From the NCBI GenBank assembly GCA_965223505.1, contig CBDCWP010000024.1, positions 64,001-128,000 on the forward strand: a stretch of DNA of 64,000 bases. Reading direction: 5' to 3'. Position 1 is the first letter of the stretch, and each line of letters starts with the position of its first letter. The position numbers and the translations under genes are program-made. Under the pieces are notes generated by a model. That model was not told the DNA's origin, did not search any database, and worked only from the letters and a program-made list of their open reading frames with translations. Of the stretch, positions 50,642-55,939 are shown one piece after another. The stretch comes from Planctomycetota bacterium. GTDB lineage: Bacteria > Planctomycetota > PLA2 > JAEUHO01.

Positions 50642-53600
50642 CTAGCTGCAACCACTCGTCGCGCCACAGGTGTCGCACTTGAGGCAGGAGCCGTTGCGCG
50701 TCATCGTGAACGAACCACACTCACCGCACGCGTCGCCGGTGTAGCCCTGCAGGCGCGCCGTCTCCGCCATGGAGAGTTGCCCACTGCGCACCCGGACCTC
50801 GCGCGTCTCGGTCACGCGCGCTTGCACCTCGAGCTTGGGAGAAAGGCCGATCCCGCCCTTGCCCTCCGCACCGCCGCTCCCGGCGCCGTTCCCGCCGCCG
50901 TTCGTTCCCAGGCCGACGACCCGCGGTCGCAGCGCCTCGTCGTCGAACACGCCCTTGCCTCCGGAACCGTTCCCGTTTCCGTTTCCGTTCGCGAGGCCCT
51001 TCGTCTCCTCGACCACCTCTTCGTCCTCGTACTCCGGCTCATCGCGCCGAACGGCGTCGGGCTGCAGATCTTCCTGTGTGACCTGGGCCAGGTCCTGGCG
51101 GTCCAGGTAGGTGATGGCGAGCTCGCGGAACACGTAGTCGATGATCGACGTGCTCATCTTGATGCGATCGTTGCCGGCGACCACACCGTTGGGCTCGAAG
51201 CGCGTGAAGACGAACGCGTCGACGAATTCCTCGAGCGGAACCCCGTGCTGCAAGCCGAGCGAGATCGCGATGGAGAAGCAGTTCATCAAGCTCCGGAAGG
51301 CCGCGCCCTCCTTGTGCATGTCGATGAAGATCTCTCCGAGCTGGCAGTCGCGCTCCGTGTTCGGGTACTCGCCCGTGCGCAGATACACCTTGTGGCCACC
51401 GACGATCGCCTTCTGCGTGTACCCGCCTCGACGCTGCGGCAGCCGGCGGCGCTTCGCGAGGTACCGAACGACCTTCACGACCCGTTCGGCAGGGCTGTCG
51501 GCATCCAACGGAAGCAAGCCCTCGGCCTCGGTCGCCGCCGCTTCCAAGGCGTCGGGCGCGACATCGTCATCGGCGTCGGACAACGTGGCATCGAGCATCT
51601 CCTCGATCTCGTCGGTCATGGCGCTGAGCGGTTGGCTGAGCTTGCTGCCGTCACGGTAGAGCGCGAGCGCCTTGAGCATCAGCCGCCAGGACGACCAGTA
51701 GGCCTCCTTGACGTCCTCTACGTTGACCTCGTGCGGCATGTTGATCGTCTTGCTGATCGCGCCCGAGATGAACGGCTGCGCGGCCGCCATCATCCGGATG
51801 TGCCCCATGTAGTGGATCGTGCGCGTACCGGTGCGCCCGCACTTGTTGGCGCAGTCGAAAACCGGCAGGTGCTCGTCGCGCAGATGCGGCGCGCCTTCGA
51901 TCGTCATGGTGCCGCAGATGTAGTCGTTCGCCTCACGCACCTGCTCCGCGCTGAAGCCGAGGTGCCGCAGGAGATCGAACGACTCCTGGTTCAGAACGTG
52001 CTCGGGGATGTTCAGGTCGTCCACGAGGCACTCGTCGCCGAGCGTCCAGCGATTGAGCACGAACGAGATGTCGAACGCGGACGGCAGCTGCGCTTCGATC
52101 TTCTCGATCATCTCGGACGTGAATCCCTTGGTGCGCAGGGTGACGGCATTGATGTGCGGACTCTCCTTCAAGGAGCCGCTGCCCTTGATGTAGCGCACGA
52201 TGTCCTCGATCTCGTCCTGCGCGTATCCGAGCTTCTTCAAGGCGGGCGGGACGGACGCGTTGATGATGCGGAAGTAGCCGCCGCCAGCGAGCTTCTTGAA
52301 CTTGACGAGCGCGAAGTCCGGCTCGATCCCGGTCGTGTCGCAGTCCATCACGAGCCCGATCGTGCCGGTCGGCGCGAGGACCGTAGACTGCGCATTCCGG
52401 TACCCGTGCGCCTCTCCGAGCTTCACGGCGCGATCCCAGACCTCGCGCGCCGCCTCGACCAGGTACGAGGGGCAGTCGTCGGCCGCGATCCCCTGCGGCG
52501 TGATCGTCAGTCCTTCGTACTCCTTCGCCGGCGCGTTGTAGGCCGCGCGCCGGTGGTTGCGCATGACGCGCAGCATCGACTTGCGATTGCGGCGGTAGCG
52601 CGGGAAGGGACCGTGCTCGGCGGCGAGGTCCGCCGACGTGGCGTAGGACTCGCCCGTCAGCATCGACGTCAGCGCGCCGGCGTAGGCGCGGCCCTCGTCG
52701 GAGTCGTACGGAATCCCGAGACGCATCAGCAGCGACCCCAGGTTGGCGTAGCCGAGGCCCAACGTGCGAAAGTCGTACGAGAGCTTCGCGATCTGCCGGC
52801 TCGGGAACTGCGCCATCAAGACGGAGATCTCGAGCACGATCGTCCACAGCCGCACTGTGTGCAGGTAGTCCTCGACCTGGAACGTGCCCGTTTCTTCGTC
52901 CAGGAACTTCACCAGATTGAGACTGGCGAGGTTGCACGCCGTGTCGTCGAGGAACATGTACTCGGAACACGGATTGGACGCGTTGATGCGGCCGTCGGCC
53001 GGACAGGTGTGCCACTCGTTGATCGTCGTGTCGAACTGCACGCCCGGGTCGGCGCACGCCCACGCGCTGTAGGAGATCTTCTCCCAGAGGTCGCCGGCGC
53101 GGACCTGCTTGGCGACCTCTCCGTCCGTGCGGCGGATGAGCTTCCAGCTCCGGCCGTCCTCGACCGCGTCCATGAACCCGTTCGACAAGCGCAGCGAATT
53201 GTTGGAGTTCTGCCCCGAGACGGTCAGGTACGACTCGCTGTCCCAGTCGGTGCTGTAGGTCGGCACCTCCATGCTCGTGAAGCCCTGGGACGCCAACGCG
53301 ATCGCTCGCATCGCGTAGTTCGTCGGAATGAGGCTGCGGCGCGCGTTGCGCATCGCCTTGCGCAGCTCGAGGTTCTTGACGATGTCGAAGCGCGTCTCCT
53401 GCTCCGGCCAGCCGTGGCAGGCTTGCATGATCTCGTTCAGGCAACGCTCGAGGAGGCGCGACCCCGCGACGAGCGCGGCGACCTTCTGCTCTTCGAGCAC
53501 TTTCCAATCGATGAACTCTTCGACGTCCGGGTGATCGACGTCGAGGCAGACCATCTTGGCCGCCCGCCGGGTCGTCCCGCCGGACTTGATCGCGCCGGCC

Positions 53601-54343
53601 GCCCGGTCGCCGATCTTGAGGAACGACATCAAGCCCGACGACTTTCCGCCGCCCGAGAGCGGCTCGCCCTCGCCTCGAATCGCGCTGAAGTTCGAACCCG
53701 TCCCGGAGCCGTACTTGAACAGGCGCGCCTCGCGCACCCAGAGATCCATGATGCCGGTCTCGCCGACCAGGTCGTCGTCGACCTTCTGGATGAAGCAGGC
53801 GTGAGGCTGCGGACGCTCGTACGCCGACCGGCTCTTGTTCAGTCGTCCCGTCTTCGGATCGACGAAGTGATGGCCCTGGGGCGGTCCGTCGATGCCGTAC
53901 GCGAAGTGCAAGCCCGTGTTGAACCACTGGGGGCTGTTGGGCGCCGTACGCTGATCCGCAAGCGTCCGACACAGTTCGTCGTAGAACGCCTGCGCGTCGT
54001 CGTCGGTGTCGAAGTACCCGTGCTGCTTGCCCCAATGGGTCCAGCAACCCGCCAGTCGGTGAAACACCTGGCGCGCATCCGTCTCACCGCCCAGCACCGG
54101 GTTTCCGTCGTCATCCAGGACGGGACGGCCGTCGGCATCGACCTGGGGCACGCCGGCGCGGCGGAAGTACTTCTGCGCCAGCACGTCCGTCGCCACCGAC
54201 GACCAGCCCGCGGGGACGCGTACGTCGTCGAGATGGAAGACGACGGTGCCGTCGGGGTTCCGAATCTCCGAGGTTCGTGAAACCCACTCGAGGCCCTCGT
54301 ACGGATCCTGCCCAGCCACCGTGAAACGACGAGAAACCTTCAT
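50642..54343 (-). CDS. nrdJ: Vitamin B12-dependent (class II) ribonucleotide reductase
   Basis: [48 protein letters not shown]-terminal Cys-rich zinc ribbon. Confidence 0.97.
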
Positions 54344-54540
54344 GAACGCCCTCCCTGCCCCGATCGACGTCACGTCGCCCGGCGCTGCCTACGCTTGTCA
54401 TCACCCGCTGTCTCGGTGCGCCGCCCGAGCACTCGGATCGCACACCCCGGACTCACGTCCACCCGAACTTCGTTCGCCCGATCTAACGCCGTCCGCGTGC
54501 CGCACCCGGTCCTTCCATCCACCCGGCCGTCACACGACCG

Positions 54541-54633
54541 CCCTCCTCGAGGCGGCCCTCCTCGAGGGCCCTATCGAGGCGGCCCGACGAGACAGCTCCC
54601 TCCGGGGGAGCCCCCTCCGACGGCCGCCCCTCC
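54541..54633. repeat. 15-nt-period degenerate repeats carrying CCCTCC (GGAGGG on the nrdJ strand)
   Basis: CCCTCC at 54541, 54556, 54598, 54613 and 54628. Confidence 0.65.
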
Positions 54634-54843
54634 GATGGAGCATCGCGGACGGAACGGCGGACACGAACCGGACCGGCGCTTGCCCATCGACAGGCACCGG
54701 ACCGACAACGAACGACCACGGTGACGGTCCCGAGCCATCCGAGAAGCCGTGCCCTGCCCTGGCGCCGCCTTCCGGACGTTCCCTGGACGGCCTCGGACCG
54801 CCTTGGAACCACGTGACCGCCCACGCACGGTCGACACTGTGAA

Positions 54844-54890
54844 CCACAACGGATTGTGGTGTCTCAGAGCCGAACCACGACATGTCGTAT
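54844..54890. promoter_or_regulatory. Tandem NrdR-box-like palindromes, 31 bp apart
   Basis: CCACAACGGATTGTGG (54844-54859) and CCACGACATGTCGTAT (54875-54890) versus consensus acaCwAtATaTwGtgt; upstream of nrdJ. Confidence 0.75.
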
Positions 54891-55140
54891 CACAGGCCGA
54901 TCGCCAACGCACGAACCAACTTCGGCCGTTCGGGGCCGCCACCTGGATCGAAACCCAAGACACTTCCCGTCTTGGGAGCGAGAAATTACGCCTGGCGGGG
55001 GACAGTGCCCCGGGCCCCATTCCTTGGGCCGGCGCCAACGCTCGCGTGCACCGGGTTGGGGTCTTCGGTGCCCAGCCCGCGGGCCTGCATCGGGTGGACG
55101 TGCCATCGCCGCGGACGCGCAGCCGCCCGCCGGATGCCCC

Positions 55141-55248
55141 GAAATTAGGAACGGGCCGGACCCTTACGGGTCCGGCCCATCGCCGCGAAGTGAACCAGAG
55201 GGAGGGTTGGGCAGGAGGAGGGAGTTGGTTCGGCCTCCGCGTTGTCCC
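55141..55248 (-). ncRNA. Candidate sRNA with anti-Shine-Dalgarno loop and terminator hairpin
   Basis: ECF-like promoter CAAC-N16-CGTATA (55279-55254); hairpin with loop ACUCCCUCCUCCUGCCCAACCCUCCCUC; 11-bp stem with GUAA loop (55153-55178) followed by a U-rich tail. Confidence 0.6.
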
Positions 55249-55294
55249 TGTTGTATACGCCCGCACCCCCGCTGTGTTGGCACTGACAACGGGA

Positions 55295-55303
55295 TTGTCC
55301 ACA
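55295..55303 (+). promoter_or_regulatory. Single DnaA-box-like site TTGTCCACA
   Basis: Matches the high-GC DnaA box TT(A/G)TCCACA; sits in an AT-richer patch. Confidence 0.4.
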
Positions 55304-55711
55304 AATCTTTACAACTACGCCGGATAGAGCGGGAATCCGCGTTCTCGCCGGCGTCGCAGCCGTGCCCCGTCCGGGCGCCCGTTTCGCTCGGCGCAACGCG
55401 GACACGACTGCGCCCCACGCCGCCACCTCGGCTTCGATCGACACGGGCCGCAGGCGACACCACCGCGCGCCCGATCGTGCACGCGGATTCGAACGCGGGA
55501 TGCCGACAACGCTTCAACGTCGCCAAAACCCGGGCTGGTTTTGCTTCTCGGCGCACTTGATTCCAGTGGTAGCTTTTCGCCGGAATCACGCCAGAAGGGT
55601 GATTCCTTTCGCAATTCAGGGTTGTGCGCATCAATGCAATCGGCGTTTGGTGTTGCACGACACGGTTCAGTTTCTTCACCACAATTCGTAGGTAGGAAGC
55701 AGGAGAGTTTC

Positions 55712-55939
55712 ATGGCTGCCAGGAAGAAGAAGAAGAAGCGCGCAACGCGCGCGAAGAAGGCCCCGGCTCTTAACCTCGTGGTCGGTTCGAAGGTCAAGGA
55801 AGCGATCAAGGGTTCGGGCTACCGTTGCTCGGGCGACCTGGTCGACGCCCTGAACTCGCACGTCCACCAGATCCTGAACGGTGCGGTCACGCGCTGCCAG
55901 GCGAACAACCGCGGTACGGTTCGCCCGCAGGACCTGTAG
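55712..55939 (+). CDS. Bacterial histone-fold protein with Lys/Arg-rich N-terminal tail (75 aa)
   Basis: LVVGSKVKEAIK...CSGDLVDALN...R...NNRGTVRPQDL matches the prokaryotic histone pattern (SKVK; TVR-x-x-D); AGGAG RBS; own terminator. Confidence 0.88.
   Translation: MAARKKKKKRATRAKKAPALNLVVGSKVKEAIKGSGYRCSGDLVDALNSHVHQILNGAVTRCQANNRGTVRPQDL

Follow-up and report, generated by a model that had tools for sequence, protein, structure and literature searches.

The 6C RNA of Actinobacteria carries two C-rich hairpins, and its C-rich loops are thought to pair with G-rich sites in mRNAs. Four further systems serve for comparison. The LhrC1-5 RNAs of Listeria monocytogenes are multicopy, 111-114 nt long, and bind the G-rich Shine-Dalgarno (SD) region through redundant CU-rich (UCCC) sites; they do not need Hfq, are induced by envelope stress and are driven by the two-component system LisRK (PMC4132741). 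RepG of Helicobacter and CJnc190 of Campylobacter each address a defined target by pairing a C/U-rich loop with a G-rich leader or ribosome-binding site (RBS), CJnc190 additionally showing RNase III processing and an antisense partner, in a Campylobacter host described as lacking Hfq and ProQ (PMC8687705). GsrN of Caulobacter, part of the alphaproteobacterial PhyR/NepR system, stands under the ECF-type sigmaT, has a C-rich 5' loop as its most conserved part, addresses many G-rich targets and activates katG, its homologues often lying near a sigma gene (PMC5869019). The cuckoo RNAs (ar14, RSs0680/CcsR) are paralogous and stress-linked, carry anti-SD loop motifs and are defined by two to four adjacent small hairpins, each with CCUCCUCCC (PMC4615179). 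Within the literature we could reach, which leaves out most subscription journals, we found no paper on the RNA considered below and no description of such a small regulatory RNA from Planctomycetota.

We analysed a window of 64,000 nt (the whole stretch of DNA under study, G000:C24:64001-128000) from a planctomycete genome, G000, of 5.15 Mb and 67% GC. The predicted RNA element with a C-rich loop sits within the 1.37-kb intergenic gap between nrdJ and a bacterial histone gene, with the following parts and neighbours.

55276..55280, minus strand: CCAAC, the -35 element of a predicted ECF-type promoter (CAAC at 55279-55276)
55254..55259, minus strand: CGTATA, the -10 element, 16 nt from CAAC
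55141..55249, minus strand: a predicted small RNA, about 109 nt long if its start is placed from the promoter (+/- 3 nt), scoring 102 bits with model R1, of which it is itself a training sequence
55184..55241, minus strand: hairpin 1, a bulged stem of about 13 bp presenting the loop, with covariation in an 11-pair core
55241-55235 with 55190-55184, minus strand: outer stem of hairpin 1, present in the sequence
55231-55226 with 55197-55192, minus strand: inner stem of hairpin 1, present in the sequence
55198..55225, minus strand: C/U-rich loop of 28 nt offering several anti-SD registers, with CCUCCUGCCCAACCCUCCC as the core kept in the family
55141..55180, minus strand: terminator-like hairpin with a GUAA loop, plus pyrimidine tail (z = -6.2)
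50642..54343, minus strand: nrdJ, B12-dependent ribonucleotide reductase (NCBIfam PRK07562, above cut-off)
54349..54360, minus strand: RBS region of nrdJ, a plausible target in G000 only, not conserved
54845..54895, minus strand: two NrdR-box-like palindromes about 31 bp apart, the control site of nrdJ itself, outside the RNA; aligned in 16/16 nrdJ upstream regions
55712..55939, plus strand: bacterial histone gene, divergent from the RNA (phmmer E = 4e-11 to PDB 9qt0, a DUF1931 protein)

A sequence-only reading of the window had proposed an undescribed anti-SD RNA at this place, and inspection finds all the motifs that it named on the minus strand, RNAfold giving the same fold of a hairpin with a 28-nt C/U loop and an 11-bp GUAA-capped stem. 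The latter pairs 55178-55168 with 55163-55153 (13 bp counting two further pairs) and is followed by a tail at 55152-55141 (minus strand), which exists as claimed but is only modestly U-rich in this copy, and the hairpin and tail were not called by a terminator scan. Folding of 55141-55250, which covers stem, loop and second hairpin, gives -50.2 kcal/mol (z = -4.12, equalled by 0 of 200 shuffles), a signal that comes mostly from the terminator-like hairpin. Since hairpin 1 folded alone does no better than shuffles (z = -0.19 and -0.95), its support is the covariation presented below. Loop positions are predicted to be about 70-99% unpaired, and extending the folded stretch over the -10 region leads to a different fold. 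Contigs from a second DNA sample of the same study span 54874-55551 with zero differences. The Rfam 15 covariance models gave no match in the window at the gathering score, and around the element, at 12 homologous loci and at 8 further loci the matches were weak and none was to a C-rich small RNA family.

Several other features are worth recording. On the opposite strand, the loops of the window copy (55198-55225, plus) and of a second locus (L161:8815-8842, plus) read as arrays of G3 runs with 1-2-nt spacers, presumably a quadruplex-forming pattern. The sequence TGTC, followed after about 11-13 nt by TAnnnT (often TG-extended), lies upstream of both nrdJ (55005-54955, minus) and the histone gene (about 55565-55590, plus), recurs throughout the family and may be the housekeeping promoter of the lineage. 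The nrdJ leader (54344-54845) is about 500 nt long, ranges from below 100 to above 600 nt among relatives, shows no sequence conservation, and gave no riboswitch match. Elsewhere, two tandem histone matches in one reading frame (G000:C21:405811-406170) probably mark a gene for a histone doublet.

Loci around the histone gene in related genomes yielded clear homologues. Fifteen copies of one locus type, type A, were aligned with MAFFT, unfitted to structure, and model R1 was built from 15 copies of that type; trained on type A only, R1 independently recovered another 27 of the 42 copies in alignment A5. R1 matches 25 of 28 family genomes, and R3, a stem-loop model without the terminator, matches 26 of the 28 other family genomes, most of the R3-positive ones having also supplied R3 training sequences. 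At least two R3 matches occur in 18 of the 27 positive genomes (G000 counted). In the sister family, R3 matched 0 of 11 genomes and R1 2 of 11, weakly. The element belongs to a previously uncatalogued gene family, usually with at least two copies per genome, of one uncultured planctomycete family. Paralogues sharing the loop core occupy unrelated loci, of four types.

Type A: in the neighbourhood of nrdJ and the histone gene, though 4 of its 16 copies lie elsewhere
Type B: close to aceE, and also to an RpoE-like ECF gene wherever the sequence examined extended that far; in G000 at G000:C21:278756-278867, minus strand
Type C: downstream of thioredoxin
Type D: 2-3 kb from the histone gene

Synteny and scanning revealed two more divergent units of the same architecture in G000, on C33 (after trxA) and C43, the former weakly scored by R3 (E = 0.07) and the latter with no R3 score reported. 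The C43 unit (L447:290-560) and those at L418, L421 and L060 are more divergent C-rich-loop units, three of which show by eye an upstream TGG..TGC that resembles the sigma-54 consensus. Two other intergenic hairpins, each bearing a C/U-rich loop ahead of a terminator and unmatched by R3, were seen at L448:1615-1735 (G000:C24:141121) and L449 (G000:C4:63676), one of them directly after a stop codon.

In the MAFFT alignment, both sides change in 14 of 25 pairs, a count reached by 0 of 500 shuffles and compared with at most 4 in slid controls, bearing in mind that kinship alone may beat shuffles on some measures of the covariation tool. Of the 14 pairs of the terminator-like hairpin, 8 change on both sides in the same alignment. 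For the 11-pair core of hairpin 1, a 36-sequence stem-loop alignment has 90.6% of cells paired and 8 pairs with changes on either side of the stem. Two of its pairs hardly vary, distant copies included: one G-C pair is kept in 36/36 and the next A-U pair in 34/36. Over the 42 copies, U is the commonest letter across 8 tail columns. G-U pairs fall on the C-rich strand, which, together with the U tails, supports that strand as the RNA strand, and the loop lengths of different copies are separated by steps other than multiples of 3, arguing that the element is not coding. Structure and loop core are kept in related genomes and the stems covary, as expected of the structured RNA first proposed.

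The upstream region is conserved in layout as well. The pattern AAC-N16/17-CGT, which we take to be an ECF-type promoter, precedes 32 of 41 copies, with about 2.2 expected by chance (type A, 14/16; type B, 7/13, two of these matches at atypical distances; type C, 4/5; type D, 7/7). Its spacer varies in sequence and is constant in length at 16-17 nt. Type A copies mostly have CAAC-N16-CGTA and types B-D mostly GAAAC-N17-CGTC, and both motifs are enriched before G000 genes (CAAC type, 10 vs 2; GAAAC type, 30 vs 7; of 3401). Some of the 30 genes preceded by GAAAC-N16/17-(C/G)GTC resemble ftsH, lpd, icd, gdhA and a thiolase, names that we presume from N-termini as guesses, and this ECF-type promoter may drive core metabolism. 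The genome holds 76 matches to sigma-70 region 2, and one paralogue lies 1.5 kb from the RpoE-like ECF gene (G000:C21:280321-280824). No promoter consensus was found in the available part of a paper on ECF classification (PMC7826278).

Copies are not tied to one arrangement of neighbours. The type-A copy is linked to nrdJ in 11 genomes, on the same strand in 3 and on the opposite strand in 8, and in 5 genomes nrdJ and the histone gene are neighbours without any copy between them in the stretch examined. The gene downstream of the element differs among genomes, and several paralogues are convergent with the next gene. Comparison across these genomes shows a non-coding, intergenic element that combines a promoter motif of its own with a covarying hairpin, an anti-SD loop and a terminator-like hairpin, a conserved, mobile and multicopy unit that, judging from sequence, moves and flips as a whole. 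To this extent, there is support for the proposal that the element is a small-RNA gene in its own right, conserved both in its anti-SD loop and in the ECF-type layout of its promoter.

The 16S rRNA of G000 ends in the usual anti-SD, and words complementary to the loop (AGGAGG, GGAGGG, CAGGAG and GGGAGG) are among those most enriched before start codons. Genes were called with a simple hexamer model (n = 3873), and 3857 start regions (-30 to +15) were scored. Complementary 7-mers of the loop number 453 at start regions vs 207 +/- 85 for shuffles, with 16 of 2000 shuffles as high; 19 of 2000 were as high when starts were picked without an SD term, and in control windows upstream the loop order was unremarkable (501/2000). 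Perfect complements of at least 7 nt occur in 292/3856 start regions vs 44 control windows, those of at least 8 nt in 123 start regions, and the top-5% binding threshold of the loop beats that of 44/45 shuffles. The letter order of the loop fits SD regions genome-wide, which makes a multi-target anti-SD RNA the most likely explanation. The exact complement of the 15-nt core is found across 29 genomes solely at the copies of the element, fitting short pairing with many targets, and one-mismatch matches are no commoner than for a reversed control. Tuning to start regions is uneven among copies: the paralogue-B loop of G000 shows none beyond shuffles (819/2000), and only 19 of 42 loops are tuned at p <= 0.05.

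Other identities and partners fared poorly. A cis-antisense RNA or type I antitoxin is rejected for lack of any long target complement, the longest perfect match of the loop to a G000 start region being 10 nt, and pairing with rRNA or tmRNA extends to at most 8 nt in the stretches checked. The 13-nt perfect match between the paralogue-B loop and moaE is absent from the 26 other start regions examined and arises where the upstream gene, presumably moaD, ends Gly-Gly-stop. In a cross-genome ranking of 11 gene families with at least 6 start regions, nrdJ and histone did no better than moaE and its neighbour, and as conserved targets across the family nrdJ, histone and moaE all fail or are equivocal.

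We favour, at a probability of roughly 60%, a conserved multicopy gene family that likely yields an RNA of about 110 nt from a predicted ECF-sigma promoter, whose exposed C/U loop would pair with the G-rich SDs of many mRNAs and dampen their translation. An ECF sigma factor would transcribe the RNA, possibly upon stress; the bulged stem would keep the loop open, so that no chaperone would be needed and the RNA could act without Hfq; and the overlapping CCUCC, CCCUCC and CUCCUG registers of the loop would pair with G-rich ribosome-binding sites, lowering the translation of many mRNAs.

An unlikely alternative is that the RNA titrates a protein, either a reader of the 16S rRNA 3' tail or another binder of C-rich RNA, with the bulged stem forming part of the site. 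Several paralogues with one loop core behind different promoters, as found here, are the pattern of protein-sequestering RNAs, and a conserved mRNA target was not found among the genes compared across genomes. The central loop letters pair with words that lack enrichment at start regions, and together with the near-invariant stem pairs they hint at protein recognition; these non-anti-SD letters and the G-C/A-U step of the stem are conserved in the paralogues and in a group of small genomes around G185, introduced below. Yet the loop order is tuned to start regions, the trxA-linked copies no longer have the central letters, CCCU/CCUC repeats being all that is left, and no candidate protein was identified, CsrA, Hfq, ProQ and KhpA/B not being found in G000 (92% complete). 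That the element is instead a cis-acting leader or attenuator of the downstream gene, or acts at the DNA level through the G runs of the opposite strand as a possible quadruplex, is highly improbable. The weak tail of the window copy would suit such an element, as would well-pairing starts downstream on the same strand (histone in G001, G017, G026, G027 and G028; nrdJ in G000), but this pattern fails in G008, G009 and G020, the variable and, for several paralogues, convergent downstream genes do not suit it, both neighbours carry conserved upstream elements of their own, and the G-U pairs and U tails indicate an RNA on the C-rich strand.

The sequence-only reading had gone further and suggested that the RNA may control nrdJ and/or the adjacent histone gene; that it is a dedicated regulator of these genes we now regard as very unlikely. 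The nrdJ pairing that it described, 12 bp with a 2-nt bulge (mRNA 54360-54349), is reproduced by duplex folding, and when accessibility is included nrdJ ranks 9 or 10 of 3857 start regions and histone 278 or 453 (145 and 541 by hybrid energy alone). This rank favours the sequence-only reading but is not specific, the nrdJ RBS of G000 being just accessible and rich in G: of 45 shuffled loops, 26 likewise place nrdJ in the top 1% and 5 equal or exceed the real loop in binding it, and the plain 16S tail places it at 0.5%. In 10 syntenic relatives, whose own loops were scored against a 1-in-8 sample of G000 start regions as background, nrdJ falls at 1.3, 5.1, 15.8, 27, 33, 35, 36, 36, 42 and 47% (median, 34th percentile), so that pairing at or below the 5.1st percentile is kept in 2 and lost in 8, and the RBS sequences differ freely. 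Conversely, nrdJ scores well in G003, G015 and G025, though these have no type-A copy. For histone, 5 of the 15 relatives with a type-A copy place the start region at 2.6% or lower, but 4 of these 5 belong to one genus, within which G004 keeps the same histone RBS with the RNA undetected; the loops of G017, G022 and G027 lack the G that pairs with the histone RBS, and in type-D genomes histone ranks at the 31st-80th percentile. Proximity does favour a link, 17 of 23 type A and D copies lying within about 3 kb of the histone gene and 11 of 16 type A copies near nrdJ. Against it, nrdJ has its own palindromes, which from the box consensus we take to be NrdR boxes (nrdR is present in G000), and AAC-N16/17-CGT is absent from the proximal upstream region of histone in 29/30 genomes. 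The suggested sRNA-RNR-histone module is supported in part only: nrdJ ranks high here, but its pairing is not conserved and the RNA gene flips its orientation. Under the multi-target reading, nrdJ would count among the more susceptible mRNAs of G000, as modelled, yet not as the conserved target.

The family was also searched for beyond its home lineage. The exact 19-nt loop core occurs at 22 loci in the genome collection, 17 of them in Planctomycetota; of the remaining 5, 4 lack the fold, about the number that we estimate from chance. The fifth, L074 in G185 (labelled Ca. Saccharibacteria), has the same stem and loop and a terminator. R1, trained on planctomycete type A only, scores the copies in G185, G186 and G188 at 39-44 bits; all three are flanked by metG and tatD, their contigs have about 45% GC, and hexamers of sigma-70 type can be read upstream by eye. 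R3 matches 3 of 12 genomes in the family of G185 (two of the three being in its training set) and 0 of 150 further genomes in its class. These planctomycete-like copies in small genomes may reflect transfer or convergence. A broader scenario, in which a general anti-SD RNA family is used by several sigma factors through separate paralogues as a broad translation brake, and a small Patescibacteria-type clade acquired the same RNA horizontally, a planctomycete host being a possible source, with stem and 19-nt core unchanged but a sigma-70-like promoter now in front, appears quite unlikely at present. A near-identical copy in tiny Patescibacteria-type genomes is nonetheless unusual and, if transferred, could point to a host link. 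Just upstream of the copies in G185 and G186 (L377:1640-1960 and L383:1630-1900), we observed another non-coding stretch, GC-rich and apparently structured, that contains a C-rich segment, lies behind a sigma-70-like promoter and has no Rfam match.

Weak matches in 12 of 151 other Planctomycetota genomes turned out on inspection to be nearly all terminator hairpins, and a search of plasmids gave no match. Stems with a long C-rich loop, a terminator and weak model scores occur at L133:3085-3207 (G034, of the sister family; after trxA, syntenic with type C) and at L364:1501-1644 (G110, a distant planctomycete). A pattern scan of metagenomes found 120 loci that we dismiss as chance matches, as 0 of the 80 scored had a model match at the pattern. 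Separately, we noted in temperate phages of enterobacteria (L285:440-590; about 70 of 79 viral loci) a structured element that lacks annotation and whose outer stem is long; it matches the loop core over at least 16 letters on one strand and on the other has two tRNA T-arm-like hairpins flanking four G3 runs, with no Rfam match. It looks like an undescribed RNA, and its link to the C-rich-loop RNA is probably chance.

Set against the known systems, the planctomycete RNA surprises little in mechanism, because the pairing of a C-rich loop with ribosome-binding sites that are rich in G is well precedented; its interest is that the family provides a testable handle on translation control in an ECF-rich lineage, along with two promoter motifs that are conserved. 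By the definition of that group it is no cuckoo RNA: it has one loop hairpin plus a terminator, the window loop lacks the CCUCCUCCC 9-mer, and the relatives carrying its loop core are labelled Planctomycetota, not the Alphaproteobacteria of that group. With 6C RNA it shares C-rich loops, 6C having two hairpins and giving no Rfam match here. Prediction and comparison give it a conserved, unpaired C/U-rich loop complementary to SD regions, of the kind seen in LhrC, RepG and CJnc190. It resembles LhrC in being multicopy, of similar length and endowed with C/U-rich anti-SD letters, but LhrC has three separate sites and LisRK in place of the single large loop and predicted ECF-type promoter of the planctomycete RNA, with no sequence or Rfam match between them. 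The RNase III processing and antisense features of CJnc190 have no counterpart seen here, nor is there an Rfam match. GsrN is alike in its ECF-type promoter (predicted in our case) and C-rich loop, and its linkage to sigma genes is echoed by the one paralogue type near an RpoE-like gene; the planctomycete RNA differs in its 28-nt anti-SD array and its phylum, and homology is not implied. By analogy, then, it would represent a new family working like LhrC, RepG/CJnc190 and GsrN.
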